A DNA stretch of 64,000 nt. Origin: a virus (lineage: Duplodnaviria; Heunggongvirae; Uroviricota; Caudoviricetes). The notes beneath the pieces are model-generated. The model searched no databases and had not been told where the DNA came from. It saw only the letters and a program-made list of their open reading frames with translations. Where the stretch lies: the IMG/VR virus record IMGVR_UViG_3300012933_000323, positions 62,432 through 126,431 of that record, one strand, 5' to 3'. Shown one piece after another: positions 8,385 through 40,942 of the stretch (position 1 is its first letter; each line of letters opens with the position of its first letter). Made by a program: the position numbers and the translations under genes.

Positions 8385-8419
8385 TAATTATTCCTAGCAC
8401 TGTTTACGCGATTTCTATA

Positions 8420-10005: not shown

Positions 10006-10301
10006 TCTTCTACTCTTTCATAAGTCTTTTCAAAAATATCTGGTTTGCAAGCATAGAATTCGCCATGCACACCTTTAATAATCCAGTCACCTTCTGTAGC
10101 AACATGCTTGGCTTCACCACCTTCGCCATCTTCTAGTGTACCAATCCATGCCCAAGCTTTTGCACCCATGTGGCGCTCAGTGCCAAACTTCAATAGTTCG
10201 TCGCCACAAAATGCAATTAATGCTTCTAATCCTGCGACGTTATATTCAAATTTTAATGCTTCAATTACAACAGGTTTCTTTCTAAATCGTAGTACGGCCA
10301 T
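10002..10301 (-). CDS. hypothetical protein
   Basis: 99-aa ORF. Confidence 0.4.
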   Translation of the reverse strand: MAVLRFRKKPVVIEALKFEYNVAGLEALIAFCGDELLKFGTERHMGAKAWAWIGTLEDGEGGEAKHVATEGDWIIKGVHGEFYACKPDIFEKTYERVEE

Positions 10302-10302
10302 A

Positions 10303-10695
10303 TCATCCTTTCTTCTTTAATTCATATTCTGTGTACATATCCACAATGGACTTTAACTCTTCTTTCGATATCAAATCCATATATTCCTTAGCTTTCTCTT
10401 CACTAATGTTAAAGTGCAAAGCAACAAATTCTGCTTTCTTAAACTTATCAACAGTTTCACTCTTAGGATATGGGATGTACTTGATCTTGCCGCCAAATGC
10501 TCTCTTAACCATGTAGTACTGATTTTCAATAGGAATGTCAGTATACAAGTTAATGGCATTTGCAGCAATAATTGCGTGTGGAGAACCACTTAACCAACGA
10601 CAGAAAATATAAGACGGGATCTTTTGGATTTCTTCTGCTGTTGGTGTTTTCTTAGGATCTAAAGCTGATGTTAATGTTTTGAACATTAGATACAA
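10303..10695 (-). CDS. hypothetical protein
   Basis: 130-aa ORF. Confidence 0.4.
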   Translation of the reverse strand: MYLMFKTLTSALDPKKTPTAEEIQKIPSYIFCRWLSGSPHAIIAANAINLYTDIPIENQYYMVKRAFGGKIKYIPYPKSETVDKFKKAEFVALHFNISEEKAKEYMDLISKEELKSIVDMYTEYELKKKG

Positions 10696-10913
10696 TCTTC
10701 CGGGAATAGTTGTTTATATGCACCGTATAATGCGGTTACATTAATGCAGTCACGAGCGTACTTATCGGCTTTATTACCGCTTTCATTTATACACCTAAGA
10801 TAATCTTTTCCGTCAATTTGTTTAACGACGGCCTTCATCATTGTTCCGCTTGCTGGGAATGCAATGGTGTCGCCAACTTTAACTGGTATTTCAAGATAGT
10901 CCAATGCACTCAT
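10686..10913 (-). CDS. small beta-barrel (KOW/SH3-like) protein, paralog of 8438..8671
   Basis: Shares the GDxIAF...G...V motif with the first copy. Confidence 0.35.
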   Translation of the reverse strand: MSALDYLEIPVKVGDTIAFPASGTMMKAVVKQIDGKDYLRCINESGNKADKYARDCINVTALYGAYKQLFPEDCI

Positions 10914-10954
10914 AATTCGTTCCTTCAGATAATTGTAACACCAACTCTATTAAT

Positions 10955-11656
10955 TTATGTTGACTTAAATATAGTTAATACACTGACTTCTGCTGCACCG
11001 TTTGTTAAAAGTACATCTGCTATATTCTTTGCGCTTGTGCCGGTTGTCATAATGTCATCAATCACAACAACTTTCTTACCTTCAAATTTTGCTAAAAGCG
11101 CGGGGTCTGTAATCTCAAACATGTTCTTAATGAACTTGCGGTGCATTGGTGAAAACATCTTAACTGATAAGTGATTCCTACGAATCGCTCGTTCAATTGT
11201 TGTCTCCATGCTTTTGATAATTGCATCGGTAATCTTTGGGTGATTACGGTCAATCTCAACCTTTGAAATATCTGGTTGTTTCTTAAAGGCATCTACATAC
11301 ACATCAACATGTATACGATCTTTGATTCGTTTAACAAACTCTTTAGTCAAATCTGACGATGAAATTGGCGACACAATGATGTCAGCGCCCAAATCACGTA
11401 GAACACGAGCAGCATAAATTGCTGACCTTGTTAAGAATGCATCGCCTTCACCAGTTTTAAAGTTAGCAGTCTTTAGTGCAGCCATCACCTGGTTTGCTTC
11501 ATTACCCTTGGCGCTGTACAAGCTGTAAGAAATTAAATCTTCTTCAATTTCTTTTTTAAATGGCTTTAGGTTTTTACCTTTGCCGAATGTTGTTAGGAAG
11601 TCAGATGCAATGTTCTGATCATGTATAAAATCTTTAAAACTCATTATTAAGCCCAA
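10955..11656 (-). CDS. phosphoribosyltransferase-domain protein (ComFC-like, type I PRTase)
   Basis: A C-terminal PRPP-binding loop KKVVVIDDIMTTGTS is present. Confidence 0.5.
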   Translation of the reverse strand: MGLIMSFKDFIHDQNIASDFLTTFGKGKNLKPFKKEIEEDLISYSLYSAKGNEANQVMAALKTANFKTGEGDAFLTRSAIYAARVLRDLGADIIVSPISSSDLTKEFVKRIKDRIHVDVYVDAFKKQPDISKVEIDRNHPKITDAIIKSMETTIERAIRRNHLSVKMFSPMHRKFIKNMFEITDPALLAKFEGKKVVVIDDIMTTGTSAKNIADVLLTNGAAEVSVLTIFKST

Positions 11657-12014
11657 GCTGTGGTTGAATGTAATTTATCACATAGGTTGGTAAACCAGCC
11701 TTACGAGATATGTTTATCATGTGTTTACTCCCACGAGATATGCCGTCCCAAAAGATTAATGTATCGGTGCCGTACTTGGCCATCTGTTCATTACGAATAA
11801 AGCCAGCACGCTTACCATACAATTTCCAATCAGCTGGAAACTCTTTAACAGGAATGTTATGCTCTTCAGCAAAACGCTTACCTAGCAAATCTGCCCCTCT
11901 TGCCATCCCACACACGACCTCTTCAATACTATTTATCAAGTTGCTATCTTTCAGCACTTTGACCAAATAGTCGTAATCGGTGAATTCTCTAGAGCCAGCA
12001 ATAATAAGTTTCAT
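11634..12014 (-). CDS. DprA/SLOG-like Rossmann-fold protein (DUF2493-like)
   Basis: IIAGSRE, VVCGMARGADLLG and GFIRNEQM follow the DprA/SLOG pattern (GxARGxD...RN). Confidence 0.5.
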   Translation of the reverse strand: MKLIIAGSREFTDYDYLVKVLKDSNLINSIEEVVCGMARGADLLGKRFAEEHNIPVKEFPADWKLYGKRAGFIRNEQMAKYGTDTLIFWDGISRGSKHMINISRKAGLPTYVINYIQPQLGLNNEF

Positions 12015-12035: not shown

Positions 12036-13160
12036 TTACCAATCATCCAGTTCAGCCGTTTCTTTCCTTAGATCATAATTTAGCGGAGCAACCATTAAAT
12101 CTAAAGGTTTCAAAAATCCTTTTTCAAATTGAGTATCGTAATCAACGCAATTTGCTTTAAGAATTTCCTTTACGAAACCATCGTTGGTATAACCAATGAT
12201 CTCAGTATTGAACACGTTTGGTGTCTGAAGGAAGATTCGTTTACATTTATCTCCAGCCTGGACTGGTGCGTACACGTCTTCTAGATTGTTTTGCTTAATG
12301 TAATGATTATGCATGATGGCAGCACGGGAACCAAACGGCGTACCTTTTTCACCAATCTTATAATCAATGCGAGACACGCCACCTACGCCAGCAATCTGAT
12401 TTAGGTTTACTTTTGTGAACTCATTCTTGATTGATTTAATCCAATCACGTAAATCATTTTCATTCTTGTCAAGAATATGTGGAATTGCTTCTTTTAGATA
12501 TTTCTTAGACCAAGGTGGTGTACTTGACTTAATGATTTCTAAGCCCATGACTTTAATCTTTGGCGCATCATCAGGGTAACGTGTACCTTCTGAATCACGA
12601 ACACGTGCATAGTATTTTTTCTTTGCAGTAAATACAGCCGTGTCAGCAATAATTTCTCGTTCAGCGCCGATCTTATCTTTGTTGTACGCATTCAGTTGAG
12701 CAGCAAACTCTTCAATAGTTTTTTCAATAACTGGTTGAATTACTTTCTTTTCAAACTTGTCTGCGAATTCAACATAGTCATTAATTGGCAAGCCAGGATT
12801 TTGCTGAATGTATTTTTCAATAAACGGTTCAAGATGGTAGTACACAGAGTCGGTATCACCATAAATGATGTACGGTTTTTCTTGTGCCAACAATTTCTGT
12901 AAAGCGTCTTCAATGTTGATAGCCAACTTCTGAATGAAGTATCGACCATTACCAGTAATCGCTGCGGCCATCAACTCATTGAACAGAGGGAACCACTTAT
13001 TAGCCATAGCGCCATAAAGCGAGTTAATCATTGTCTTTTCAACAAGTTGGCGGGTGTTATAAAGTGATTCGCCTTCTTCAGCCTGTGAAAGAAGAATGTT
13101 CAATTCCTCTACAGGCAAAGCGCGTAGTTCATCTTCTGTATATGTAAGTACGTTTTTCAT
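12036..13160 (-). CDS. 43: family-B DNA polymerase, C-terminal fragment (palm motifs B and C, thumb) = gp43B-like
   Basis: Motif B KTMINSLYGAMAN (Kx3NSxYG) and motif C YIIYGDTDSVY. Confidence 0.85.
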   Translation of the reverse strand: MKNVLTYTEDELRALPVEELNILLSQAEEGESLYNTRQLVEKTMINSLYGAMANKWFPLFNELMAAAITGNGRYFIQKLAINIEDALQKLLAQEKPYIIYGDTDSVYYHLEPFIEKYIQQNPGLPINDYVEFADKFEKKVIQPVIEKTIEEFAAQLNAYNKDKIGAEREIIADTAVFTAKKKYYARVRDSEGTRYPDDAPKIKVMGLEIIKSSTPPWSKKYLKEAIPHILDKNENDLRDWIKSIKNEFTKVNLNQIAGVGGVSRIDYKIGEKGTPFGSRAAIMHNHYIKQNNLEDVYAPVQAGDKCKRIFLQTPNVFNTEIIGYTNDGFVKEILKANCVDYDTQFEKGFLKPLDLMVAPLNYDLRKETAELDDW

Positions 13161-13166: not shown

Positions 13167-13391
13167 TTATACACCGCTTCTTTTTAAAACACCAAGCACA
13201 ATTTTTGTCACGTCTGCTTCATACTTTTGTTTGGAACACGGCCGACAAAATTTTGATAATTCAGTTGGTTGTTCTTTATCCCAAAATGATGAAAGGCGTT
13301 TCTCACGTTTACAGCATGGGCAAACTTTTGTATTTTCCGTGATGTAACGATGACGCTCCATCGGCCCCATATTTTTGATACTTTTAGCCAT
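13167..13391 (-). CDS. small zinc-ribbon ORF lying in the gap of the split polymerase gene
   Basis: CPCCKREK...CRPCSK motif; the ORF overlaps the stop of the N-terminal polymerase fragment by 8 nt. Confidence 0.35.
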   Translation of the reverse strand: MAKSIKNMGPMERHRYITENTKVCPCCKREKRLSSFWDKEQPTELSKFCRPCSKQKYEADVTKIVLGVLKRSGV

Positions 13392-14985
13392 GTCTTTCCT
13401 TTAGAATTTCTTTGATAAGAATCTTACGTTGTTCAAATTGGAACATCGTCTTTTTTGCGGATTTACGTGAGTCGTAAATTTCTTGAACCATCTCTGGTAC
13501 CATGCCAAGCTTTTCTTTACTAAACACTGCACCGTTGATACCAAGTGTTAGATTATACAACTTAAGTAGATCTGTTGTTGTATCCCAAACTTCGTCAGAT
13601 AGATGTAAACGATTTTCTTCGTTTTGATCATTAAAGTAAGTAAGAACGATATCACGAAGATCTGGTGGTAGCTTACTCTTTGGGATAAACGTTTCAGGAC
13701 TCATGTTGAAACCAACCATACCAAGTAACGGGTACATGGAGTTTACGTCAGCTGATACCACCCATCTATGTTTGCCTGTGTTTGGATCACGAACATAACC
13801 ACCAACGACATGCGGATCAGGAAACTCCTGGCGCATTGGCATAACTTGCATGTTCTTAATAGAACGGTTAGAGATGTACTGTGACCAAGGTTTCACGGTA
13901 CCCATTGAATCGCCGATCTGTACACCCATCTTCTCGGCAATCATACTCATCAATACTGTGAAGTTCTGAGCTTCATCAATACGCTTAATTAGATATGTAT
14001 CGGTTGCGCCGTAGTACACGAATTCCGAATGGGCAAGTTCTTTTACTTCATCCCAGTCACCAGCAATAGCTGCTTTATAGATCAAAGAATTTTTCTGTTC
14101 TTCTGTAGGTTCTTCAGGGATAATGTACTTACCTGTATAGAAGTCGTCAAAGCCAGCGTACTCAGAGTGTTGAACTTTGTTTTCGTTAAGCTCAAACTCT
14201 GCGACGGTGTCCAATGAATATGATGGCATTGGGTGGAATGTGAACTTCTTGTACACATCCATTAAGTCAATCCAAAAGTGACCATCTGCGTTGAACTTAA
14301 ACTCCATCTTGCCTTGGAATTCACCTTCGCTGTATGATACTTTACCGTAGTTTGATAAGCGTGTAGTATCCATGCCTAGGTTCTTTAGGCGGTTATGAAT
14401 GTATGGGAAGTCAAATCCTGAACCGTTCCATGCATACACGATCAATGGATCTAGTTTCTTATAGATGTTTAGGAATGTTTCTAATAGGTGGATTTCATCT
14501 GTACACTTTACATACTTAACTTGATATTTAAATACATAAAGGCTTTGATGTTTCCATTCGCGAAGGCCAAGAATGAACATTGTCTTGACTTCTGAATCAT
14601 AGAACTGCATCAATGAGATGGGTTCTAATGCTTTTTCTGGGACTGGGAAACCAGTACTACATGTACCTACACGTGTTTCAATGTCGAGATACCAGATGCG
14701 TGGAGATGCGTTATAACCACGCTCTTTGCCCCAATAGTTATCGCGGATATTGCGATACATTGGATCCAAGAAACCGTAGTGTTCACGGCCTTGTTTGGCG
14801 TTGCCTTGCTTCTTTTCTAACTTAATTGTTTCATCAAGAATATATGTATAGATACCACGAGATGATGGCTCATACCATTCATACGGTAGATCAATCTGCT
14901 TCTTAACCGAACGATTTAATTGATCATCATACGCTCGTTCATAGAAATTGTAACCATCACGCCAAGTAGCTTCAAATAATTTCAT
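13384..14985 (-). CDS. 43: family-B DNA polymerase, N-terminal fragment (3'-5' exonuclease + motif A) = gp43A-like
   Basis: Exo I WYLDIETR, further exonuclease motifs, and motif A ADVNSMYPLL (DxxSLYPS). Confidence 0.85.
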   Translation of the reverse strand: MKLFEATWRDGYNFYERAYDDQLNRSVKKQIDLPYEWYEPSSRGIYTYILDETIKLEKKQGNAKQGREHYGFLDPMYRNIRDNYWGKERGYNASPRIWYLDIETRVGTCSTGFPVPEKALEPISLMQFYDSEVKTMFILGLREWKHQSLYVFKYQVKYVKCTDEIHLLETFLNIYKKLDPLIVYAWNGSGFDFPYIHNRLKNLGMDTTRLSNYGKVSYSEGEFQGKMEFKFNADGHFWIDLMDVYKKFTFHPMPSYSLDTVAEFELNENKVQHSEYAGFDDFYTGKYIIPEEPTEEQKNSLIYKAAIAGDWDEVKELAHSEFVYYGATDTYLIKRIDEAQNFTVLMSMIAEKMGVQIGDSMGTVKPWSQYISNRSIKNMQVMPMRQEFPDPHVVGGYVRDPNTGKHRWVVSADVNSMYPLLGMVGFNMSPETFIPKSKLPPDLRDIVLTYFNDQNEENRLHLSDEVWDTTTDLLKLYNLTLGINGAVFSKEKLGMVPEMVQEIYDSRKSAKKTMFQFEQRKILIKEILKERHG

Positions 14986-19142: not shown

Positions 19143-19562
19143 TTAGTCCTTTAAAAAGTTAGATGGCACCAACGTATCCAAAGCATAACGTTCAAAATAT
19201 TGATTGCCTGCATTACCTTGCTTTTGATCGCAGATTGCTTTATCAGCATCATTCAATTTACCGTAACGAACGAAGTCGCCATCTTTATTCAAACCTTTGC
19301 GAAGTTCAATAACATCAAATGCGCCTTTCAAACAATCTTCGGCATTCATGTTTACGGTCTTAGCCAAGTTGATCAATGTTACGACTGTATCACCGATAGC
19401 ATCAGATACTTCAGCCATGTCGTTGTTGTTCATCGCATCATGAATTTCAACAACTTCTTGTAGTACACGTTGGTACTGACGTTGGAACGATGCTCCACCG
19501 ATACCGCGAATTGCACCCCATTGGCGAACCGCTTCAAATTCTTTTAAAACTTTTTCTGTCAT
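19143..19562 (-). CDS. MazG-like all-alpha NTP pyrophosphohydrolase (dCTPase/gp56-analog candidate)
   Basis: EVVEIHDAM...DAIGDTVVTLINLA matches the MazG EExxE...D metal-binding helices. Confidence 0.55.
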   Translation of the reverse strand: MTEKVLKEFEAVRQWGAIRGIGGASFQRQYQRVLQEVVEIHDAMNNNDMAEVSDAIGDTVVTLINLAKTVNMNAEDCLKGAFDVIELRKGLNKDGDFVRYGKLNDADKAICDQKQGNAGNQYFERYALDTLVPSNFLKD

Positions 19563-19601: not shown

Positions 19602-20042
19602 TTAAATATTATGAATGCTTTCTATAGTAAACACATTGGTATCTGTATCATATGAAATGACAATTACCTTTGTGCTAAAAAACCATTGCCTTGTGGCACT
19701 TTTCCTTCTTCGTAATTTAGAGATTTCTCTATCTGTACCAGATTCTGTCATGGTGTGTTTGCGCCATGTCTTTACTTCTGTTCTTGTGCCACCTGGCGAA
19801 ATTAGATCATGCCATTTTGCATCATCATTCGTATAGTTAAATTGTGACATAAGAATGTACTCGCCAATCTTACCTAGCAAAGTATCTTTCCGTATATCAT
19901 CAAATGTACGAGGTCTACCCGATAGTGAATTATTATCTGCATAATCTGATTCATAAATCGAAGTAGCCTCAAGGTCCGCAGCATCTAATACATATTGCGG
20001 AAGTGCATCCCTATCAACAACAAATTGATCACCAATCACCAT
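19602..20042 (-). CDS. hypothetical protein
   Basis: 146-aa ORF. Confidence 0.4.
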   Translation of the reverse strand: MVIGDQFVVDRDALPQYVLDAADLEATSIYESDYADNNSLSGRPRTFDDIRKDTLLGKIGEYILMSQFNYTNDDAKWHDLISPGGTRTEVKTWRKHTMTESGTDREISKLRRRKSATRQWFFSTKVIVISYDTDTNVFTIESIHNI

Positions 20043-21325
20043 TGCTCCGCTTCAGGCATAGACGGTGTATCTAACCTTTGCTTGATGTTATCCTGCATTA
20101 CGAATGGTGTACTAGAAATTTGAAGCTTGCCATTCAAATATTCTTTGATCTGTGATCCGATAAATGTAGCAGTTTTAACTGGTACGTTTTGAGAAATGTG
20201 GTTCCAATTCTTTTTGGCTTCAATCATCTCAAAGTCATGAGGGTGACCCATTAGATGTAACAGTTCACGAATGTTATATCCTCGTTCTTCAGTAGGATGT
20301 AATGATCTATGAATGTTTTTAGAAATAACAGCATTAACATACTGACCATCATTGGCCAAGTATGTTGTGCTATCCCAGTATCCTAGACCTTGTTCACGCT
20401 TCTTCTTACAATGTCTACAAATTCTTGCGGCTCTTAGGTACTTATCTTTATCAGATGTTTCGCCAAGTTCCTTAGCTTTCTTTTCAAACCATTCAATGGC
20501 AGTATCAAAACCAATGTGGTCCGTTAATTGTAAAGCTGTCCATGTATTCTTACCTGGGCCAATCTTTTGCATGGACTTATAGTAATTTGATTCACCTGAA
20601 TATGCTAAGATAAAGTCATAGAATTGATCTTTAGAATCAATAGCAACTTCTTCATCCCAGTGCGGCATACCTTCACCAACAAATGTCAAATATTCCGGCA
20701 ATGGTGTATATGGAACCAATTGGTAGTTAAATAAACCAGGATTACCGTCACGGTAAAAGTTAATAAATGTCCTCTTACGAGATTGCGGGATACCATGTAG
20801 CAATGTATCAGTACGGAATAATTGTGTGGTGTAACCAGCATCTTTAGCGATTGCTTCCAATCTTTCAACGACTGACTTACCAGCTTTCGTGTATGCAGCT
20901 GGCGCATTCTCAAATGCAACCACCTTAGCACTCATTTTAAAACCAAGCTTAGTTAGCCCGTACATATTTTGGTTTTGGTCGTTATCGGCATCACCCCGTG
21001 CTTTTGAACCAGTTGAACATGCGTTCAATTGACTTAGGCCAGCACAAACAGCTACGTGCATTAATACATCAACACCATCTTCAACAATTTTGTTGAAAAG
21101 TGTCTCGTCTTCGTTGGACTTAAATGTAATATAGTCCGTTTCCATATTAATGACAGGAATGTTAAGTTTCTTGATTTCATTCATGTACTTGATGTAATGA
21201 TTGTCATTACCGAACCCAGCGGTGATGATTGCCTTTGGTGGTGTACCAAAAGCATTTTGAAACCCAATCGGCATGCCACCAATTAGTGGCTGTGCCACAA
21301 CCCATTTAATATTTTTACCAGTCAT
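20036..21325 (-). CDS. DNA C5-cytosine methyltransferase-like protein (divergent) with a 250-aa C-terminal extension
   Basis: Motif I LIGGMPIGF, motif IV VAVCAGLS (PCQ-like with Cys), motif VI FENAPAAY (ENV) and motif VIII GIPQSRKRTFI (QxRxR) occur in canonical order and spacing. Confidence 0.5.
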   Translation of the reverse strand: MTGKNIKWVVAQPLIGGMPIGFQNAFGTPPKAIITAGFGNDNHYIKYMNEIKKLNIPVINMETDYITFKSNEDETLFNKIVEDGVDVLMHVAVCAGLSQLNACSTGSKARGDADNDQNQNMYGLTKLGFKMSAKVVAFENAPAAYTKAGKSVVERLEAIAKDAGYTTQLFRTDTLLHGIPQSRKRTFINFYRDGNPGLFNYQLVPYTPLPEYLTFVGEGMPHWDEEVAIDSKDQFYDFILAYSGESNYYKSMQKIGPGKNTWTALQLTDHIGFDTAIEWFEKKAKELGETSDKDKYLRAARICRHCKKKREQGLGYWDSTTYLANDGQYVNAVISKNIHRSLHPTEERGYNIRELLHLMGHPHDFEMIEAKKNWNHISQNVPVKTATFIGSQIKEYLNGKLQISSTPFVMQDNIKQRLDTPSMPEAEQW

Positions 21326-22541
21326 CTAATCCCTCTTCTTTAATAATTTCTTGAATGGAAAATGCATTTCCATTTTTATTTATGGCTGGCATGGCGGCCT
21401 TGATCGTGTTTGACAATGTTTTACCGTTCAAGTCATCTTCTTTGATACATGATAGACATTCAGCTACAATCTTACCGTATAGTTCTGGATCTGCGTTCAG
21501 CTGAGAAATCTTTTCGCCAAGATCAGATGGTTTGGATAAGCGAATAAAGTCAGGGACATTACAGTGTTTTTGTTCATCATATGTTGGATGAAAGAATGGA
21601 ATGATACCGTTAGAAATCATTTCAACCCACTTCGCAGTAACCCAACCTGGTTTGATTGGAATGATCAACGTGTACTTTACGGATGGCAATTCAGTCTGAA
21701 GATCTTCAAACTTTTTAGGCCCTTTGAATCTTTGATCACTGCCAATTGTTGCCTCGTCCCACTTACCATAAATGGCTACATCCTGCATTGAATCAAGAAC
21801 ATATTCTTTAAGCATCGGGTAACGTGACTTAACTCCGTTATTACCTTCGTTAAGAACCATCATAAAACCAATTGTCTTATTCATGGTTGCTGGAATCTTT
21901 TTATCAATCAGAAAGATTTTTTCCATACCTGCATAAACGGCCGGAATTTTGTTCTTGACATAATTCTGATCAACCCAATTATCGAAAGTTTGCATCTCGA
22001 TGGTTTCAGTGTACTGCGAAAGAATCTTCTTTGGTTGATTCATGCAGTCATTGCCTTGGCCGATGTATCTAGGATCATTCGCAATCATAACCCAAGGGAT
22101 GTTGCTTTCATTTAAGTATTGATATACTGGCGCTACATAATTTGTAAATGTTTCCAATGACTTTGCATATTCTTTCTTGCCAACTTTTAAGTCATTTCGT
22201 TTCCATGATTTGTTTGGAATATTACAATTAGCAACAGGTCCACTAAGCATGAAACATCCATCTACTTGGACATCCTTAAGTCGTTGGACGATATAGTTGA
22301 CGTCTTTACGTTGCTCAGAAGTTGCTCCTTCATAAACATCTCGCAAGTTGGTTGGTAAGTTCATCTCTTTGCGATGCTTATCTACATCATTTCGACCGAT
22401 GATGATAAATGTATCATCTGGGTTTAACTCAGCCATTTTGCGAATAAGTTCAGGTGCTTCGTTGTCGCCACCAATAGCGCCCCAAGTACTTGGGTTAAAT
22501 TTTACAGACTTACCAATCTTACCGCACAAATATGTTGCCAT
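21315..22541 (-). CDS. glycosyltransferase resembling T4 DNA beta-glucosyltransferase (Bgt-like, tentative)
   Basis: LNEGNNGVKSRYPMLKEYVLDSMQDVAIYG aligns with Bgt YGGSFRSGQRESKMVEFLFDTGLNIEFFG, and AKWVEMISNGIIPFF with Bgt RVWETMASDAVMLI. Confidence 0.4.
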   Translation of the reverse strand: MATYLCGKIGKSVKFNPSTWGAIGGDNEAPELIRKMAELNPDDTFIIIGRNDVDKHRKEMNLPTNLRDVYEGATSEQRKDVNYIVQRLKDVQVDGCFMLSGPVANCNIPNKSWKRNDLKVGKKEYAKSLETFTNYVAPVYQYLNESNIPWVMIANDPRYIGQGNDCMNQPKKILSQYTETIEMQTFDNWVDQNYVKNKIPAVYAGMEKIFLIDKKIPATMNKTIGFMMVLNEGNNGVKSRYPMLKEYVLDSMQDVAIYGKWDEATIGSDQRFKGPKKFEDLQTELPSVKYTLIIPIKPGWVTAKWVEMISNGIIPFFHPTYDEQKHCNVPDFIRLSKPSDLGEKISQLNADPELYGKIVAECLSCIKEDDLNGKTLSNTIKAAMPAINKNGNAFSIQEIIKEEGLDDW

Positions 22542-22578: not shown

Positions 22579-23979
22579 TCAGTTAAAAATTTTGTCAATT
22601 TGCATCTGAATCATTTCATCCGAGTTTTCAATATACTCATTAATACGAAGATGTTTCTTTAAATCATTTAAGACATTAATTCTTTCATCGTCATGTTCAT
22701 TATAGAAATTGATGCGTTTCTCAATATCTTCTGCACATCTTACAATAAGCTTAGATTGAATTTCTGCTGGAATCTGTAAACAAGCAGGATCGTATTGGTG
22801 ATCTAATAACGGTAAGATATCTCTATATGTGTACAGAACTGGTCTAAAGTTCAATGAATCATTAATTGATACACACCTAAAGACCATGCCGTACTTGTAT
22901 CTTTGCGTTTTTTCATTTAACTCATGTGGTAGTAAAGAACCTTTAAAGTGCGCATGATTTTTAACACTTTCATATAGATCAATGAAGTTCTCGTTCTCTT
23001 TTAATAATGATTCTTGGTACTCAGCTTTTCCGCCATGACTCTTATTAATGCCGTTTCTTCTTAATGGGATATAGTAAGAACACTTTTGTGATTTAACACC
23101 ATTTAAGAATTCGTCCCATATAAATCTACGTGAACCTTTATCCTGGAAAATTGTACCAGCAAAGAACATGTTATGCGACTTTTCAACTAGTGGTTCGTCC
23201 CAATCATCCAACCCAACAGGTTTGAATTTATTGTCGTAGACGATGTGTTGTAATTGCGCAATGTCCAACTGATTAAAATTTCTAGTGCCCCGCTTATCGT
23301 CGGCAAAATAGAAAAATGTTGATTTGACATTATGTTTATCAAAGTAAGGTGTATAGATGGCTGGGTCAATTGAAAAACCAATTACTTTGCCATTTAACTT
23401 ACCACTACGATTAATAAATTCAATTGCGCGCGTAAACAAGTTATAGTCCTGTGTACTAAATGCAAACGGAGAAACATATTTGTCATAATATTTAATGACC
23501 ATATCGTTCACTTCGTCGATGTCTTTTAGTACTTGTTCATCTGATCCAACATAATCAAAGAATTCGTTCTCAAGGTCACTTAGATATGCGTGAGTTTTTC
23601 TTGATGCATAAGCTGTTAACGGAAGTCTAAAGAAGTCGTCTGTGCCAAGTACAATATAATCAATCTGTGGCAAATCTTTAAAGCTTTCAGCTAGCCAACC
23701 GTCCAAGGTAACTTTGTTCTTTTCCCTATAGTCTGGTCCAGCAACTTTTCTCAACAGCTTTGCAGTTGGCTTGCGGTTAATCTCATAGTAATTATCAGTT
23801 AGTCCACAGCCTGAACCCACTGTGATGATATTGAACTTATCTTTAATATGTTCTTTAATAACGCGCGCTGCACCATAGATATGGGTGTACGCACTTTGGT
23901 CACCCTTATCCATAAAAATTACAGTTTTCTTACTATCATCAATAATAAGTTTCCCTCGTAACTCAAAAATCATTTTCAA
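22579..23979 (-). CDS. hypothetical 466-aa protein (second glycosyltransferase candidate)
   Basis: No motif recognised; the call rests on its position inside the modification operon. Confidence 0.35.
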   Translation of the reverse strand: MKMIFELRGKLIIDDSKKTVIFMDKGDQSAYTHIYGAARVIKEHIKDKFNIITVGSGCGLTDNYYEINRKPTAKLLRKVAGPDYREKNKVTLDGWLAESFKDLPQIDYIVLGTDDFFRLPLTAYASRKTHAYLSDLENEFFDYVGSDEQVLKDIDEVNDMVIKYYDKYVSPFAFSTQDYNLFTRAIEFINRSGKLNGKVIGFSIDPAIYTPYFDKHNVKSTFFYFADDKRGTRNFNQLDIAQLQHIVYDNKFKPVGLDDWDEPLVEKSHNMFFAGTIFQDKGSRRFIWDEFLNGVKSQKCSYYIPLRRNGINKSHGGKAEYQESLLKENENFIDLYESVKNHAHFKGSLLPHELNEKTQRYKYGMVFRCVSINDSLNFRPVLYTYRDILPLLDHQYDPACLQIPAEIQSKLIVRCAEDIEKRINFYNEHDDERINVLNDLKKHLRINEYIENSDEMIQMQIDKIFN

Positions 23980-25498
23980 CCTTTAAATAAATTTCTTTAA
24001 AGATGTTATAGTAAATCTCTTGATTATTTTTATTATGTGAGTGCAATGGTATCATGCTTAGGAATAAGCTTGCACAAATCAATAAAATATACTCTTGTTC
24101 ATCCTTTGAGTAGTATTTATTGAACTTATCTTTAAACAGATTTTTGATGCTGTCTTTGCCTTTGTTATAAAGTTGGTATGTACTTCCATCTTTTACATAA
24201 AGTTCAGCGTCAACAAAATCGTAATCAAACATAATTGAATGGCACATTTTTGCTACTTCATAATAGTGATCACCAAATAATTCACCACGTGGGTCAATCA
24301 TTGTAAGGTTACCGTTGAAGTCATAAAGTAGATTACTAAAACAATAATCGCCATGCATCAATGTTGGCCGAGGGCAAATAGAAGCAATTGCACTTTCAAA
24401 GTCTTCAATGAAATCATTTACTAACTTATTTTCAATTGGAATTTCAATATCTTTCACACGAGACTTCGTCTTGTCAATTACGGTTTTCATAAAACTATTA
24501 TGTTGACCATACGTCTGCATAACACGAAGTTGCTCAAACATTGCTTCAAACAACGTATCCCAGGTTTCTTCTGAAGAATCTAAAAACAAGTAAATTTCGC
24601 GAACCGATGGGGCTTTAACTTTTTCCATCTTATACCATGTACGCGCAGCGAATAAATCTTTTGCAAAAATTCTTGGAGTATGAATCGCAATATCATCTGG
24701 TAAATTCATAAACCAGTTGCACTCTTTAATGATCTTTTCGCGCTCTTTCTCGCTTGACTTAGTAATAAATGGTCCGTCAATTTTAATGTCATTAAATGAT
24801 CTAGAAATCTTAACAGATCTATTCTCCAAGTACTCTTCCAATGTCCCGAAGTCAACCATTGAAAGATTGATAGTACTCATGTAATATTCATCAGCCGTCC
24901 ATTGAAGAGTTGTGCTTAACTGGAATTCACCCGCAATTTTGTATGATGCATCACTTAGTTGTTTAGCCAGCATTTTAAACAATGTCTTTGAACTAACAAA
25001 ATGATACACTCCGCTAACAGACAGGTTAGTATTAGGTCTATCCTGTGGCTTATCCAGGAATTGTTTACAGTAACCGTCAGCATCAGTTTCAACCATACAC
25101 CAACGTGAATAGTCAGGTACTTCCTTAACGGAAATAAAATTTGCATAGAACATGTCACTTGGGATATCATCTTGCACAACTAGATCACCCAAGAGAATAA
25201 GCACATTCTCGTTAACGTCAGTTGGATCCTCTGCTGCCAAGACGGCACCAGCTAATCCATTTCGTTCTTCTTGATGGCAAATAGTGACGTTCTTATTGTA
25301 AAACTTTAGAATGTCTTTTACTGTATCTTCTGCATGATTTAGTACTACACGGATTTCTGTACACCCGTGCTTTTCCAACCACTCAATCTGGTGAATAAGA
25401 ATTGGCTTTTCTTTGTACGGTAAGATTGTCTTACTGTAGTGCTTGCCCAATTCTTTAAATCTAACACCGCGACCGGCGGCTGGAATAATACCTAACAT
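23963..25498 (-). CDS. bifunctional sugar-1-phosphate nucleotidyltransferase (N-term) / APH-choline-kinase-like anomeric kinase (C-term)
   Basis: The N terminus reads MLGIIPAAGRGVRF...LILLGD (RmlA/GlmU/LicC fold). The C terminus carries LMHGDYCFSNLL and MIDPRGE (HGDxxxxN...D kinase motifs, as in LicA/NahK/AmgK). Confidence 0.65.
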   Translation of the reverse strand: MLGIIPAAGRGVRFKELGKHYSKTILPYKEKPILIHQIEWLEKHGCTEIRVVLNHAEDTVKDILKFYNKNVTICHQEERNGLAGAVLAAEDPTDVNENVLILLGDLVVQDDIPSDMFYANFISVKEVPDYSRWCMVETDADGYCKQFLDKPQDRPNTNLSVSGVYHFVSSKTLFKMLAKQLSDASYKIAGEFQLSTTLQWTADEYYMSTINLSMVDFGTLEEYLENRSVKISRSFNDIKIDGPFITKSSEKEREKIIKECNWFMNLPDDIAIHTPRIFAKDLFAARTWYKMEKVKAPSVREIYLFLDSSEETWDTLFEAMFEQLRVMQTYGQHNSFMKTVIDKTKSRVKDIEIPIENKLVNDFIEDFESAIASICPRPTLMHGDYCFSNLLYDFNGNLTMIDPRGELFGDHYYEVAKMCHSIMFDYDFVDAELYVKDGSTYQLYNKGKDSIKNLFKDKFNKYYSKDEQEYILLICASLFLSMIPLHSHNKNNQEIYYNIFKEIYLKVENDF

Positions 25499-25845
25499 TA
25501 TAGTCCTTCTAGTAAATGCAGTTCATCAGGTCGAACCGCCTTATCATCAATGTAAATTATACCGAACGGTTTGTTAAAATCCAAGCGATCATACTTCACA
25601 TTATATTTATGCAACCACGAATTTATGATAGATCGGTATTTCTTATCAGCATCTTGCCTATTTGACGCTGATACATGACCGCGTGCAGTATAGATGTGAA
25701 TTAGATAACCTCTATTATGTAGTTCATTTAGTTTATTTATGAGTTCAACATTTGGTTTACCATCAGCGATATTTGACTTATCATGCGCTGGGTGTAAGCA
25801 CAGTGTATCATCAAAATCTACGATGACGAGCTTATCATAATTCAT
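25498..25845 (-). CDS. small HAD-superfamily phosphatase
   Basis: Motif I VDFDDTL, motif II IYTAR, motif IV IYIDDK. Confidence 0.55.
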   Translation of the reverse strand: MNYDKLVIVDFDDTLCLHPAHDKSNIADGKPNVELINKLNELHNRGYLIHIYTARGHVSASNRQDADKKYRSIINSWLHKYNVKYDRLDFNKPFGIIYIDDKAVRPDELHLLEGL

Positions 25846-26390
25846 TATACTGTCCTATGTAATGATCCAAACATTAGCGTCAACTCAATTGGTTTGGATC
25901 GCAGGTCTTTCATCAGTTCGTCAGTAATTTCGCTGTAGCCTTTAGCTTCACGCATGCGCTCAAGGTGCACGATCAATTCAGTTGGTAATTCAGTAATAAA
26001 TCTAAGATCTGCTGGCAAAGCACCGTCAATATCTGAACTTCGGAAGTACACATTCAAATAAATTTTATCACGAACCAAGATCTGAATAGTACTGATGCAA
26101 TCTGGTGAAACAGCAACTAAACGACGAGTGTCCAAGATATTTACATTGCTGTAGTATTTGATTTCTTGAAGTTTAGAAAACAACTGATGCTTTAGAAAAT
26201 TATGGAAGTGCAGTTCATTTCCACGACGCTCAATCAGCTTATCATTAATGTATTTACTCCAAAGAATGATTCCGTAATCGCTACAATGAACGAAGTTATC
26301 AAATGTTGCTTTGTATGTAACTGCGCATAATTCGCGAGAATCTAAACTATGATCTAAATTCTCATACATTTCTTCAATGATATTATACAT
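25845..26390 (-). CDS. hypothetical 181-aa protein within the hmC modification operon
   Basis: No motif recognised. Confidence 0.4.
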   Translation of the reverse strand: MYNIIEEMYENLDHSLDSRELCAVTYKATFDNFVHCSDYGIILWSKYINDKLIERRGNELHFHNFLKHQLFSKLQEIKYYSNVNILDTRRLVAVSPDCISTIQILVRDKIYLNVYFRSSDIDGALPADLRFITELPTELIVHLERMREAKGYSEITDELMKDLRSKPIELTLMFGSLHRTV

Positions 26391-27054
26391 TCATGTCCTT
26401 TAACATATCAAAGTGGCGTTCATATACATGCAAGTTGGATGCTGTCCAGATTAGATCACCAACTTCTACATTCAATGATTTAGCAAGTTTAGTTTGGATA
26501 TGACGAGCCCACGCATAATCATTATTATAGCCGAAGACGCTATCGTTACTACGCATGATGTAATGAGAAATTAGTTTACCATTACGAATAAAGAATGAGT
26601 TAGCGAATGTACACATGAAGTCATTCATGCCATCTTTATTGAAGTCCGTATGCATTGATGGTCGATTATAAATCATCGTAGCACGGCGAGAGTCTGGGTT
26701 GTTTTTGAGTTCTTGTAATACATGTGAATATTGATATCCATTTTCTGGAGTGTAAACACACCATCCATAATTGGAATTAATCTTTCCTTCTGTAGATGAA
26801 ACCGCTTCCCAAATAGCAGGAGTTTTACCAGGGATATCTCGAACATATAGACTCATGGATTCATACCATGCTAATTCACGTTCGATGTATTCATATGCAG
26901 GTGTACGAACGATATGATCTTCATCAGCAATGAATGTAGCACCAAGAATTTCGATTGTCTTTGCACCAGTTCGGTCAATAGTAAACTCTTGGCTATCGTA
27001 AGCCTGTTTAAACATCTTACGGATGTCTTGTACTTTTAATCCAGTATTAATCAT
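26383..27054 (-). CDS. 42: dCMP hydroxymethylase (T4 gp42 homolog, thymidylate-synthase fold)
   Basis: Near-identity with T4 gp42 blocks: DRTGAKTIEILGATFIADE, NPDSRRATMIYNRPSMHTDFNKDGMNDFMCT, and MRSNDSVFGYNNDYAW, where Asp occupies the cytosine-specificity position (TS has Asn). Confidence 0.85.
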   Translation of the reverse strand: MINTGLKVQDIRKMFKQAYDSQEFTIDRTGAKTIEILGATFIADEDHIVRTPAYEYIERELAWYESMSLYVRDIPGKTPAIWEAVSSTEGKINSNYGWCVYTPENGYQYSHVLQELKNNPDSRRATMIYNRPSMHTDFNKDGMNDFMCTFANSFFIRNGKLISHYIMRSNDSVFGYNNDYAWARHIQTKLAKSLNVEVGDLIWTASNLHVYERHFDMLKDMNV

Positions 27055-27062: not shown

Positions 27063-27632
27063 TTAATATGTATGGTTAATAAAATATGTAACACGCTCAG
27101 AAACTTTTTCGGCATCAGAATGAACAATGTTGATCAATAATTTATTCTTAATCAATGACTTATCGTGTGCATTGATAAAATTGTTGATTTCTGTTTTCTT
27201 CTTTTCTTTATCTGTGCTAAAAGACAAGCCATCGTCACGCATAATCAAATTGTCTGGTTGATCAATGAGTGTGATAAGATAAAGATTATCCCAGATAGGA
27301 TGGATGTGTTTGAACTTGCGTTCAACATCAAGAACGTACTCACCTGTATATCCGCGATAAATCGGGCCATACACCATTTCACCCAGATGTGAACGATCAA
27401 AAATCATACCTGATTTATCGTACTTTGAACACTCAAACATGTTTTGGAACATTTCTGTGTACATCTTTGTACTGTATTCAATAGTTTTTGCAGGTGATTC
27501 TTGCTTTACATTTGAATAATGTAATGCGTGTAAAGTAAAGTTGTTGAATTTATTTTTAAGGTTTTGGATCAATGTACTCTTACCTACATTGTCTGGACCT
27601 TCAATGATGATGAATAGATTTCGTTTATTCAT
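27063..27632 (-). CDS. dNMP kinase of the thymidylate-kinase family (hm-dCMP/dTMP kinase candidate)
   Basis: P-loop IIIEGPDNVGKSTL and a thymidylate-kinase-like overall length. Confidence 0.6.
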   Translation of the reverse strand: MNKRNLFIIIEGPDNVGKSTLIQNLKNKFNNFTLHALHYSNVKQESPAKTIEYSTKMYTEMFQNMFECSKYDKSGMIFDRSHLGEMVYGPIYRGYTGEYVLDVERKFKHIHPIWDNLYLITLIDQPDNLIMRDDGLSFSTDKEKKKTEINNFINAHDKSLIKNKLLINIVHSDAEKVSERVTYFINHTY

Positions 27633-28853: not shown

Positions 28854-29426
28854 TTAAACAACTTTGTCAATTAAACCTAAGCATTTTGCATCTTCAGCTG
28901 ACATATAAAAGTCACGTTGTGTTTTCATTTTTAATGTTTCTAATGTAGATTTGCCGTTTGTAAAGTTGGCAATATCAATTAGTAAACTATCTTGTAAGAA
29001 CTTTGTTTCTTCATAATCAATTTTCATGTCATGAAATGTACCCATTGTCCCAGAACTAACGGAGTGAATCATAATACGGCAATGCTTCATTGCCCTACGT
29101 TCTCCAGTTCCTGATGCTAACAAGTAAGCACCCATTGACGCACACATACCAACACCAACTGTATTTACTTTGCACGGGATATGATCAATAATATCTTTAA
29201 TGGCCAATCCATCATACACAGAACCACCTGGGCTATTAATGTAAAAATTAATTGGTAACTCAGGATTATCCGCAGCAAGCCAAAGCATCTGCATAATGAT
29301 AATATTTGCGGTATCAGGATTTACATCCTCTCCCAAATATACAATTCGGTCTTGCAGCAATCGACTTGGTAAATCGATTGGTTTTTCTGAGCGACCGGTT
29401 TTTTCAATTACGTTTGGGATTAACAT
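28854..29426 (-). CDS. clpP: ClpP serine protease homolog
   Basis: INSPGGSVYDGLAIKDII...GMCASMGAYLLASG...CRIMIHSV is collinear with E. coli ClpP (INSPGGVITAGMSIYD...GQAASMGAFLL...SRVMIHQP). Confidence 0.85.
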   Translation of the reverse strand: MLIPNVIEKTGRSEKPIDLPSRLLQDRIVYLGEDVNPDTANIIIMQMLWLAADNPELPINFYINSPGGSVYDGLAIKDIIDHIPCKVNTVGVGMCASMGAYLLASGTGERRAMKHCRIMIHSVSSGTMGTFHDMKIDYEETKFLQDSLLIDIANFTNGKSTLETLKMKTQRDFYMSAEDAKCLGLIDKVV

Positions 29427-36624: not shown

Positions 36625-37113
36625 TTAAATATCGCCTTCATAACCAGCAGGTACGATTAAACCACTGTCTAATACGACACCATTGATTGTGTGAGGTTCA
36701 TTTTCATCATAAGTCCAGCCTAAATGTTTCATCATCTTATGTTTAACCAAAAGATTAGGACTACGAAAGACTTCGGTATCATCAAAGCCAAGCATCACGC
36801 CAATTTCGCAAACTGCACCACTACGACATACACCAGCTACGCAATGAACAATCACGTTCATATGATTTTCTTTAGCGTGTTGTAATAGTTCAACCAACTG
36901 CTTTGCTTGGTCATCTGTGACTTTGAATTCTTCACCCCAAGGATCATCCTTCTCTAAGTCTAGAAACTCAAATTGGTGAGTCTCTTTAAATTGATAGAGC
37001 GGTGTTGGGAATTCCATTGCTGGATCAACAATCTGGATCAACATGGCATTAATACCAGGATTGATATGGTGGCCTTTTGTAATATCAGCCAGTGCTACGT
37101 TTTGAATCCACAT
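36625..37113 (-). CDS. protein tyrosine/dual-specificity phosphatase (CX5R)
   Basis: P-loop VHCVAGVCRSG. Confidence 0.6.
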   Translation of the reverse strand: MWIQNVALADITKGHHINPGINAMLIQIVDPAMEFPTPLYQFKETHQFEFLDLEKDDPWGEEFKVTDDQAKQLVELLQHAKENHMNVIVHCVAGVCRSGAVCEIGVMLGFDDTEVFRSPNLLVKHKMMKHLGWTYDENEPHTINGVVLDSGLIVPAGYEGDI

Positions 37114-40931: not shown

Positions 40932-40942
40932 TTTTGTCTTTC

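Follow-up and report, generated by a model that had tools for sequence, protein, structure and literature searches.

Which metabolite does a phage activate with a single polypeptide that joins a nucleotidylyltransferase (NTase) to a small-molecule kinase, and on what acceptor is the product placed? The question is raised by a gene cluster in the 64-kb window (the whole stretch of DNA that was analyzed), for which a preliminary description had proposed a 511-aa fusion with an NTase at its N terminus and an APH-fold kinase at its C terminus. The proposed gene is a real open reading frame (ORF) on the minus strand (Table 1), and every motif quoted for it is present: GIIPAAGRGVRF at aa 3–14, LLGD at aa 102–105, HGDYCFSNLL at aa 382–391, and IDPRGE at aa 401–406. 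The plus-strand frame over the same interval is riddled with stops. Since 618 proteins matched the fusion at E ≤ 1e-5, the best 120 of them with a query coverage of at least 88% and lengths of about 445–557 aa, the ORF is a genuine one and not a chance occurrence. Both halves exceeded the Pfam gathering cut-offs, NTP_transferase (PF00483) over aa 3–225 (E 4e-18, 66.3 bits against 21.2) and APH (PF01636) over aa 272–427 (E 4.5e-5, 23.8 bits against 23.2), and the signatures of both were invariant in a 40-sequence alignment of the fusion family. The N-terminal half carries the G-x-G-x-R...K motif, two metal-binding Asp, and the phosphate-binding Lys (A8, G9, G11, R13, K23, D105, K150, and D216 invariant), and the C-terminal half shows a bilobal kinase fold with the HxDxxxxN catalytic loop and the Mg-binding Asp (H382, G383, D384, N389, and D402 invariant). 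By homology, the former is an RmlA/GalU/ST0452-like sugar-1-phosphate nucleotidylyltransferase, and the latter is a small-molecule kinase of the APH fold whose catalytic loop is intact. The closest NTase matches were hexose-1-phosphate enzymes, with the 'DKP' lysine conserved and Gln at the uracil/thymine-reading position. The kinase fold matched aminoglycoside, choline, and sugar kinases equally well, so the fold by itself is no proof of a sugar-phosphate substrate. An assignment of the sugar from the best NTase matches (Glc-1-P, GlcNAc-1-P) or from the kinase matches was dropped, the scores having no discrimination between sugar classes.

Table 1 Features of the gene cluster in the window, in order of position.
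Feature	Position	Strand	Length or basis
MazG-like NTP pyrophosphatase	19143..19562	minus	phrog_715 E 1.9e-17, weak Pfam MazG match
Divergent C5-cytosine-methyltransferase-like protein	20036..21325	minus	429 aa; Pfam DNA_methylase E 4.8e-11
Second GT-B glycosyltransferase, BGT-like	21315..22541	minus	408 aa; family profile
GT-B glycosyltransferase, T4 beta-glucosyltransferase (BGT)-like	22579..23973	minus	464 aa; ATG at 23973
NTase-kinase fusion ORF	23963-25498	minus	511 codons + stop, 511 aa
Fusion C-terminal domain, APH-fold small-molecule kinase, probably sugar-phosphate 1-kinase	23963..24805	minus	aa 232-511
Fusion N-terminal domain, sugar-1-phosphate nucleotidylyltransferase	24815..25498	minus	aa 1-228
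AfhF-like small HAD phosphatase	25498-25845	minus	115 aa; translationally coupled to fusion
Minimal thymidylate-synthase (TS)-like paralog	25845..26390	minus	181 aa; profile of 37 homologs
dCMP hydroxymethylase, T4 gp42 ortholog, makes 5-hydroxymethyl-dCMP	26383..27054	minus	homology; upstream of fusion
dNMP/thymidylate-kinase-like P-loop kinase	27063..27632	minus	189 aa; phrog_761 thymidylate kinase E 1e-16

The fusion had been presented as new among phage DNA-modification components, a view overtaken by the literature. The RB69 fusion was proposed in 2018 to be a UDP-arabinose-forming part of phage DNA modification (PMC6024577), and AfhE was characterized by He et al. (Nat Chem Biol 2026), as related in PMC13326640. 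According to that account, AfhE phosphorylates arabinose-5-phosphate at C1 and then forms UDP-arabinofuranose, and the phosphatase AfhF takes off the 5-phosphate between these two steps. In hhalign, the profile of the fusion family aligned with the joined RB69 gp53:52 at a probability of 99.2% (E 1.5e-19, 393 aligned columns, 3–433 with 3–430). The 561-aa RB69 ORF used in this comparison was rebuilt: removal of the base at 29116, where the frameshift had been published, left an internal stop, and deletion of a neighboring base restored the ORF. The RB69 family phrog_4098 was matched by the fusion at E 5.5e-23 over aa 4–430 and by the two halves of gp53:52 at E 1.6e-118 and 1.8e-169. Because the identity to RB69 gp53:52-type enzymes is about 23%, and pairwise BLAST with the RB69/HY126-type enzyme aligned little outside the catalytic loop, substrate specificity is not transferable from those enzymes to the present one. 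By profile comparison, the fusion is a distant, collinear homolog of RB69 gp53:52, DLP3 gp82, and HY126 AfhE; the NTase–kinase fusion is not new, its type having been described in RB69-like phages between 2018 and 2026, and the present protein is a divergent variant.

Immediately upstream of the fusion lies a HAD protein, as had been noted, and its stop TAA overlaps the ATG of the fusion as TAATG. It is 35% identical to RB69 gp51 (E 7e-16) and matched phrog_1238 (E 6e-22) and TIGR01689 (E 1e-12). Its best PDB matches were 9iqw (E 3.3e-11) and 1xpj; the aligned stretch of 9iqw equals RB69 gp51 except for one conservative substitution (F for L). Of 39 non-redundant fused-type clusters, the set to which all linkage counts refer, 37 carry the HAD gene no more than 500 nt from the fusion. 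The preliminary guess that this phosphatase removes a second phosphate, for example a 5-phosphate, agrees with the biochemistry of the AfhE/AfhF pair as related in PMC13326640, because the protein is a homolog of AfhF, the reported 5-phosphate remover. No arabinose-5-phosphate isomerase was detected with RB69 gp55 as query in the window (phmmer and tblastn, best E 0.28), within 10 kb of the fusion in the 39 relatives (gp55-seeded jackhmmer, 0/39), or through contigs common to fusion and gp55 relatives in IMG/VR; this search spanned the window, 80 viral loci, and the contig overlap from a single seed, which GmhA-type SIS proteins could escape. A search for RB69 gp46:47 homologs in the window and near the 39 relatives was likewise negative.

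The surrounding genes all share one strand, their stops and starts overlapping, and they point to cytosine in DNA. The TS homolog upstream matched T4 deoxycytidylate hydroxymethylase (1b5e) over its full length (phmmer, E 2.5e-71) and keeps both the catalytic Cys, in DFMCT, and the Asp that specifies cytosine, in NNDYAW. Its residue at the position of ThyA 169 is Asp; Asn at this position is the mark of 5-hydroxy-dCMP synthases (PMC13326640). Judged by this match and these residues, it is a T4 gp42-type dCMP hydroxymethylase and not a 5-hydroxy-dCMP synthase. The P-loop kinase, whose dTMP-kinase matches in Pfam and NCBIfam are weak, takes a position likewise filled in Enterococcus phage 9183 and RB69, and it probably acts on hm-dCMP. 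The MazG-like protein is a candidate dCTPase that would remove dCTP, as T4 and RB69 dCTPases suggest by analogy. Downstream, the 464-aa glycosyltransferase (GT) gene begins inside the fusion gene, its ATG overlapping the final 11 nt, and homologs of the protein are also 464 aa long. This protein had no Pfam match, and Foldseek with its AF2 model (pLDDT 92, pTM 0.90) placed T4 BGT at the top of the PDB (1j39, 1qkj, and 1bgt, E 2.7e-9 for 1j39 to 1.6e-8), followed by other GT-B enzymes. The family profile of the 408-aa GT matched T4 BGT (1bgt/1nzd) at E 2e-5 over positions 126–370, and Glyco_trans_1_2 and Glyco_transf_10 were matched by 25/41 and 18/41 family members, respectively. This GT shares 30% identity with the ORF048 product of Enterococcus phage 9183, whose gene likewise lies downstream of its fusion gene, and the two GTs of the window are distant paralogs (hhalign 97.2%). 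Both have a GT-B fold with T4 BGT as the closest solved relative and are BGT-like transferases with DNA as the putative acceptor. In addition, the profile of the 181-aa TS-like protein matched T4 gp42 starting at its catalytic residue, Cys148 (E 0.0023), with Cys98, Arg117-Ser-Ser, Asp128, and His178 invariant in its family. The 429-aa methyltransferase-like protein, a recurring component of such clusters, retains ENA and QSRKR motifs; its gene occurs in 10/39 clusters, eight with a TS-type hydroxymethylase and two in which no acceptor enzyme was detected within 10 kb. Scans for promoters and terminators gave no more than the shuffled expectation, and a search for tRNA genes was negative.

At the DNA level, the 9-kb cluster had no Megablast match among 50,697 phage records, and relatives were found at the protein level only, in Enterococcus phage 9183, Stenotrophomonas DLP_6, Pseudoalteromonas XG4, and Ralstonia RSL1. 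A relative with 84% identity retains the gene order, whereas a jumbo-phage contig with 47% identity and Enterococcus phage 9183 have it in rearranged form. A literature search yielded no paper on phage 9183, and an enterococcal study that it did yield deals with an unmodified phage. Across the relatives, the HAD and fusion pair is accompanied by TS-type hydroxymethylases and BGT-like transferases, or by TET/JBP dioxygenases and TAGT transferases. A TS-type hydroxymethylase lies near the cassette in 13 clusters and TET/JBP in 16, and TET/JBP and TAGT genes are both neighbors in 15, including that of Stenotrophomonas phage DLP_6. The sole known job of TS-type hydroxymethylases and TET/JBP enzymes is to provide a C5 hydroxyl handle on DNA pyrimidines.

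Taken together, our data indicate that the fusion is probably the bifunctional sugar-activating enzyme of a phage DNA-hypermodification cluster, with its donor sugar destined for 5-hydroxymethylcytosine (5hmC). In the order suggested by analogy with AfhE/AfhF as reported, the C-terminal kinase would first phosphorylate the anomeric C1-OH of a sugar already bearing a terminal phosphate, such as pentose-5-P or possibly heptose-7-P or hexose-6-P from host metabolism. The AfhF-like phosphatase would then strip the terminal phosphate from the 1,omega-bisphosphate, and the N-terminal RmlA-like domain would join the sugar-1-P to a pyrimidine NTP, presumably UTP or dTTP, to give the NDP-sugar. The two BGT-like transferases would then decorate 5hmC with this sugar, most likely in the form of a mono- or disaccharide; the 5hmC would enter the DNA via the gp42-type hydroxymethylase, the dNMP kinase, and the MazG-like dCTPase. 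We further suggest, more tentatively, that the cassette may need no isomerase of its own and be fed by host central or envelope metabolism (ribose-5-P, host arabinose-5-P, heptose-7-P, or hexose-6-P) and that the BGT-like pair may build an undescribed 5hmC mono- or disaccharide, for example a true pentofuranosyl-oxymethyl-cytosine, a structure once misassigned to RB69. In this extended form, which we regard as possible, the HAD and the NTase–kinase would be a portable 'bring-your-own-donor' module coupled independently to a TS-type hydroxymethylase, a TET/JBP dioxygenase, or a flavin-dependent TS-like hydroxylase.

The preliminary description had instead envisaged salvage of a free sugar, from X via X-1-P to NDP-X. 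In this scheme, the kinase would act on an unphosphorylated sugar, like AmgK, NahK, or methylthioribose kinase, and the HAD protein would serve elsewhere, for example in proofreading or nucleotide dephosphorylation. However, an AfhF-type HAD gene adjacent in nearly all clusters, and coupled in the window, is hard to explain with a phosphatase outside the pathway, and the homologous AfhE is reported (PMC13326640) to act on arabinose-5-phosphate and not on arabinose. The relatives that had been named for the fusion, AmgK/MurU, NahK, and LicA/LicC, share folds with it, and its profile search revealed no specific sequence relationship: there was no family-level match to curated models or solved members, the likeness to MurU reaching 30 bits against a cut-off of 250, and AmgK/NahK giving no match. 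Salvage from a free sugar is therefore improbable, and the route from sugar-omega-phosphate via sugar-1,omega-bisphosphate and sugar-1-P to NDP-sugar is more likely. Less probable still is an NDP-sugar that serves something besides DNA, for instance the host envelope polysaccharide, glycosylated virion proteins, or superinfection exclusion, with the nucleotide-metabolism neighbors coincidental. Clusters of NDP-sugar and glycosyltransferase genes with a presumed role on surface polysaccharides do exist in phages, large ones especially (PMC7824862), and DNA is a predicted acceptor of both GTs. On the other hand, independent lineages link the cassette to enzymes that make C5 hydroxyl handles and to the DNA-specific BGT-like and TAGT transferase families, and in structural comparison both GTs come closest to T4 BGT, a DNA-modifying enzyme. 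Finally, a LicA/LicC-like system, in which choline, ethanolamine, or a related alcohol would be the kinase substrate and the NTase would make a CDP derivative for DNA or a host or virion glycan, is very hard to reconcile with the hexose-1-P enzymes, 'DKP' lysine, and Gln of the NTase comparison, with GT-B, BGT-like NDP-sugar transferases in place of LicD-type phosphotransferases, and with a conserved HAD partner homologous to a sugar-bisphosphate phosphatase.

Sugar decorations of phage DNA determine which restriction, CRISPR, and type IV defense systems can cut it, and they hamper the sequencing and engineering of therapeutic phages. Our results suggest that the AfhE/AfhF-type cassette extends beyond arabinosyl-5-hydroxycytosine phages. 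With 618 homologs, and with 39 non-redundant viral clusters inspected, the module appears to be widespread, and its clusters appear to act in hydroxymethylcytosine pathways as well, both those of the T4 (hydroxymethylase) type and those of the TET type. Identification of the sugar would probably add at least one new DNA hypermodification and provide a defined three-enzyme NDP-sugar route usable in enzymatic DNA labeling; arabinose or glucose would make it an incremental extension of known biology.

Among known systems, AfhE/AfhF of E. coli phage HY126, RB69 gp53:52 with gp51, and Acinetobacter phage DLP3 gp82 with gp81 supply UDP-arabinofuranose for arabinosyl-5-hydroxycytosine DNA. The present locus shares with them one polypeptide of RmlA-like NTase followed by APH-fold kinase, collinear with RB69 gp53:52, an adjoining small AfhF-type HAD phosphatase, and an NDP-sugar presumably meant for phage cytosine glycosylation. 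In contrast, identity is low, gene order is different, and the cluster showed no phage arabinose-5-phosphate isomerase (SIS domain). Instead of a 5-hydroxy-dCMP synthase (the Asn169 TS homolog) and GT4-type, MshA/PimA-like arabinosyltransferases, it has a gp42 ortholog with 5-hydroxymethyl-dCMP as the acceptor precursor, and BGT-like transferases. Shewanella phage Thanatos encodes TH1_060, a 561-aa homolog of RB69 gp53:52 (53% identity reported) with an N-terminal 'glycosyltransferase-like' and a C-terminal phosphotransferase domain, in a cluster responsible for a pentose modification of cytosine, and inactivation of TH1_060 nearly abolished phage propagation (PMC12838424). TH1_060 belongs to the RB69-type subfamily, known there by homology and inactivation rather than enzyme activity, and the window fusion is much more distant. 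The metagenomic 'contig 53' combines a HAD–APH fusion, an NTase, and a BGT-like GT to produce heptosyl- and di-heptosyl-5hmC in E. coli (bioRxiv 10.1101/2023.12.21.572611). It resembles the present cluster, by description rather than by sequence, in joining an APH-type kinase, a HAD phosphatase, and an NTase with a T4-BGT-like GT, and its products on 5hmC include a disaccharide. The two differ in the fusion partners (HAD–kinase against NTase–kinase), in the NTase (annotated cytidylyltransferase, 'CTP transf.', against RmlA-type NTP_transferase), and in the source of 5hmC (methyltransferase and TET against dCMP hydroxymethylase). AmgK–MurU, NahK–GlmU, and LicA–LicC likewise combine a kinase of the APH fold with a nucleotidylyltransferase for sugar or alcohol phosphates, a likeness confirmed at the fold level, but they use unphosphorylated substrates and have neither a phosphatase step nor a link to DNA modification. 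The bacterial ADP/GDP-heptose pathway (HldE or HddA kinase, GmhB HAD phosphatase, HldE or HddC nucleotidyltransferase) is an analogy of mechanism and not of family membership: its kinases have PfkB or GHMP folds rather than APH, its phosphatase is GmhB whereas the HAD here is of the small AfhF/1xpj type, and NCBIfam HddC scored 36.6 bits against a cut-off of 300. T4, which makes glucosyl-5hmC with gp42 and beta-glucosyltransferase, has an orthologous hydroxymethylase, and its BGT is the best solved relative of both GTs. Whereas T4 draws on host UDP-glucose and has no sugar-activation enzymes, this phage carries its own kinase/phosphatase/NTase cassette, which implies a donor that the host supplies not at all or not reliably.

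The fusion of a nucleotidyltransferase (NTase) with an APH-fold kinase is encoded by a 511-residue open reading frame (ORF) at exactly 23963-25498. The preliminary description had located this ORF to the nucleotide and quoted its motifs correctly (GIIPAAGRGVRF at residues 3-14, LLGD at 102-105, HGDYCFSNLL at 382-391 and IDPRGE at 401-406); the coding strand, however, is the minus strand, and stop codons abound in the plus-strand frame. Pfam assigned residues 3-225 to NTP_transferase (E = 4e-18, well over threshold) and residues 272-427 to APH (E = 4.5e-5, barely over threshold). A cut-off of E <= 1e-5 retrieved 618 homologous proteins, and in all 120 of those listed, from which coverage and length were taken, at least 88% of the query was covered by proteins of about 445-557 residues, indicating that the fusion is a stable architecture. 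In an alignment of 40 homologs with identities down to 37%, A8, G9, G11, R13, K23, D105, K150 and D216 were invariant in the NTase half, as were H382, G383, D384 and N389 of the catalytic loop and the Mg-binding D402 in the kinase half. The basic residues R233, K343, R347, R404 and K417 are invariant too, and are candidates for a phosphate pocket. The AlphaFold model built from this alignment was confident (pLDDT 90.3) and comprised two domains. The N-terminal half resembled ST0452, RmlA, GalU, GlmU and mannose-1-phosphate guanylyltransferase in sequence, in profile comparison (E of about 1e-16) and in Foldseek, and Gln76 was aligned with the Gln by which RmlA-type enzymes read uracil or thymine. 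These results bear out the proposed sugar-1-phosphate NTase, including its NTP-binding signature (A8 to K23), and the proposed APH-fold kinase. Since anomeric hydroxyls are phosphorylated by both methylthioribose kinase and maltokinase, the fold of the kinase half is compatible with an anomeric sugar kinase; the fold alone picks no substrate.

Pairwise BLAST of the fusion against the two halves of its RB69 counterpart, gp53:52, gave weak matches, whereas profile methods were clear. The family defined by the RB69 halves, phrog_4098, matched residues 4-430 of the fusion (E = 5.5e-23). In hhalign, the fusion-family profile and the joined RB69 ORF aligned collinearly along 393 columns with 23% identity (99.2% probability, E = 1.5e-19), and the alignment takes in the RSFN motif where the two domains meet. 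The adjacent HAD phosphatase was 35% identical to RB69 gp51, and its best solved relatives were 9iqw (E = 3.3e-11) and 1xpj; the aligned stretch of 9iqw is that of RB69 gp51 save one conservative substitution (F for L). Judged from these sequence matches, the fusion and the HAD are homologous to the AfhE/AfhF pair of phage HY126. RB69 ORF053c and ORF052c form a single 561-aa gene, which was proposed to aid UDP-arabinose synthesis with an arabinose-5-phosphate isomerase (Thomas et al. 2018, PMC6024577). Lee et al. (2026, PMC13326640) describe DLP3 gp82 and RB69 gp52:53 as an N-terminal NTase with a C-terminal kinase, and credit He et al. (Nat Chem Biol 2026) with the finding that the HAD enzyme AfhF removes a phosphate from the 1,5-bisphosphate. 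The suggestion that the HAD phosphatase of the window removes a second phosphate gains from its homology to AfhF. Inactivation of another family member, TH1_060 of Shewanella phage Thanatos, almost completely inhibited phage propagation (PMC12838424). This fusion type is already known in phage DNA modification, and its presentation as new to that field was out of date, since the RB69 gene (2018) and AfhE/AfhF (2026) precede it.

The window encodes homologs of gp15, terminase, gp41, gp43 and gp44, and its phage is a distant T4-like myovirus. Its nearest cultured relatives by terminase, 191-kb Vibrio phages with 66% identity, are without the fusion. The gp43 homolog, a family-B DNA polymerase, is encoded as two ORFs separated by a 223-nt gap; further genes outside the cassette are listed in the table. 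From 27632 down to 19143, every gene is close-packed on the same strand, and stops and starts often overlap. The thymidylate-synthase (TS) homolog matched T4 gp42 dCMP hydroxymethylase over its full length (E = 2.5e-71), retains both its catalytic Cys and the Asp that specifies cytosine, and is a gp42 ortholog. The 464-aa protein had no match in a Pfam search; its confident model (pLDDT 92) matched T4 beta-glucosyltransferase (BGT) best among solved structures (E = 2.7e-9), with other GT-B enzymes ranking next. T4 BGT was likewise matched by the family profile of the 408-aa protein (E = 2e-5), and many relatives of this protein have weak glycosyltransferase (GT) matches in Pfam. The two transferases are distant paralogs.

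Features of the window: the cassette in transcription order, then other genes
Feature	Position	Strand	Remark
dNMP/thymidylate-kinase-like protein	27063-27632	-	first
TS homolog, gp42 ortholog	26383-27054	-	second
181-aa protein, TS-like paralog	25845-26390	-	third
115-aa HAD	25498-25845	-	fourth
Fusion	23963-25498	-	fifth
464-aa protein, BGT-like GT-B	22579-23973	-	sixth
408-aa protein, BGT-like GT	21315-22541	-	seventh
C5-methyltransferase-like protein	20036-21325	-	eighth
146-aa protein	19602-20042	-	ninth
MazG-like pyrophosphatase	19143-19562	-	tenth
gp43 homolog, N-terminal ORF	13384-14985	-	
gp43 homolog, C-terminal ORF	12036-13160	-	
Phosphoribosyltransferase-like ORF and SLOG/YspA-family ORF	10955-11656, 11634-12014	-	overlapping
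ClpP protease	28854-29426	-	
Dual-specificity/tyrosine-phosphatase-like protein	36625-37113	-	
SPFH/Band-7 proteins (449 and 266 aa) and 1301-aa protein	39582-41743, 41802-45707	-	SPFH/Band-7 genes adjacent; 1301-aa protein beside them, without Pfam match
RNA ligase	46783-47868	-	PHA02142 OB domain
NAD salvage set	53900-55330, 55833-56777, 56788-57774	-	nicotinamide phosphoribosyltransferase and NMN adenylyltransferase-Nudix fusion, radical SAM protein between

An IMG/VR scan with the fusion-family alignment yielded 80 loci. ORFs were called in these and searched both with profiles and iteratively, the seeds being taken from the window, RB69, 9183, DLP_6 and metagenomic contexts; after clustering at 90% identity there were 39 fused-type clusters. 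An AfhF-like HAD gene lay no more than 500 nt from the fusion in 37 of them. Each type of acceptor-forming enzyme went almost strictly with one transferase family: TS homologs, found in 13 clusters, were accompanied by BGT-like GT-B transferases in 12, and TET/JBP dioxygenases, found in 16, by TAGT transferases in 15. Every cluster-associated TS homolog had Asp at positions 169 and 177, as in the dCMP hydroxymethylase type, and Asn169 occurred in RB69 only, among the TS homologs compared. A search seeded with RB69 gp55 detected no isomerase within 10 kb of the fusion in any of the 39 clusters, and no arabinose-5-phosphate isomerase in the 64-kb window. The gene order of the window was preserved in an 84%-identical relative and present in rearranged form on a 297-kb contig (47% identity). 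In about 17 more clusters the kinase domain was unfused to the NTase, and in several of these the NTase ORF abuts the kinase. The AfhE/AfhF-like cassette appears to be a portable module of wide occurrence, which is coupled also to TET/TAGT systems.

Stenotrophomonas phage DLP_6 (KU682439.2; L002 in our set of loci, locus 6730-11020) is of the TET/TAGT type. Two of its genes are wrongly labelled in the public record: a Tet_JBP dioxygenase domain (E = 8e-19) is present in AAY80_030, labelled 'SNF2 DNA repair protein', and AAY80_028, labelled 'hypothetical', is a TET-associated glycosyltransferase (E = 1e-9). In addition, an AfhF-like HAD ORF at locus 7637-7960 is absent from the annotation. Together with the fusion AAY80_029, they form a predicted TET-type hypermodification cluster.

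Two other genes of the window cassette were also followed across the clusters. The minimal TS-like paralog between the dCMP hydroxymethylase and HAD genes has catalytic Cys98, R117-S-S, Asp128 (at the cytosine-specifying position) and His178 invariant among 37 homologs. The match of its family profile to T4 gp42 is confined to the part of gp42 from Cys148 on (E = 0.0023), and 9 of the 39 clusters scored against this profile, outside the window's clade mostly on the full-length TS homolog. Directly after the second glycosyltransferase gene, the divergent C5-cytosine-methyltransferase-like protein retains ENV-like and QxRxR motifs, and its Pro-Cys motif is changed to VCAGLS. Homologs occur in 10 clusters, eight with a TS-type hydroxymethylase and two in which no acceptor enzyme was detected up to 10 kb away. 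For a phage that presumably swaps cytosine for 5hmC, such a gene is puzzling.

The active-site motifs of both catalytic domains are intact, the pair to which the fusion and HAD are related is biochemically characterised, and the linkage to HAD, 5hmC-creating enzymes and DNA-type glycosyltransferases is tight and widespread. In the pathway that we propose, the kinase would add a phosphate at C1 of a sugar already bearing a terminal phosphate, the HAD would strip off that terminal phosphate, the NTase, with Gln76 at the uracil/thymine-reading position, would produce a UDP- or dTDP-sugar, and the two GTs may put one or two sugars onto 5hmC in DNA. The functional reading in the preliminary description largely agrees with this pathway. 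The exception is its salvage route, with the kinase and NTase acting on a free, unphosphorylated sugar: the phosphatase gene is a near-constant neighbour of the fusion (37/39 clusters), and this, like the precedent of AfhE, speaks against such a route. Activation of a phospho-alcohol in the manner of LicA/LicC is likewise disfavoured, as the partner transferases are GT-B enzymes and the NTase shows sugar-1-phosphate features. An NDP-sugar destined for a non-DNA target fits poorly with the finding that linkage of the cassette to a hydroxymethylase or a TET enzyme, and to BGT-like or TAGT transferases, recurs independently. For the proposed DNA glycosylation pathway, no isomerase was detected near the cassette, whether the host of the phage is Gram-negative or Gram-positive, which points to a host-supplied sugar phosphate. 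Given the analogy with AfhE and a HAD of the AfhF/TIGR01689 type, we consider a pentofuranose-5-phosphate somewhat more likely as the substrate than a heptose-7-phosphate or a hexose-6-phosphate.

The novelty lies in the variant, in which an AfhE/AfhF-like cassette is joined by a true dCMP hydroxymethylase and by a pair of BGT-like transferases, and no isomerase was found in the window; the variant would be of greater interest if the sugar proved to be a new DNA adduct. The AfhE/AfhF system has 5-hydroxycytosine as its acceptor, which is produced by a flavin-dependent TS homolog with Asn at ThyA position 169 (He et al., as cited in PMC13326640), whereas the window TS homolog, the gp42 ortholog, has Asp there. 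The transferases of that system are MshA/PimA-like, in contrast to the BGT-like transferases of the window. A related arrangement, in which a HAD-APH fusion is combined with a cytidylyltransferase and a BGT-like GT, was tested in E. coli and yielded heptosyl-5hmC (bioRxiv 10.1101/2023.12.21.572611).
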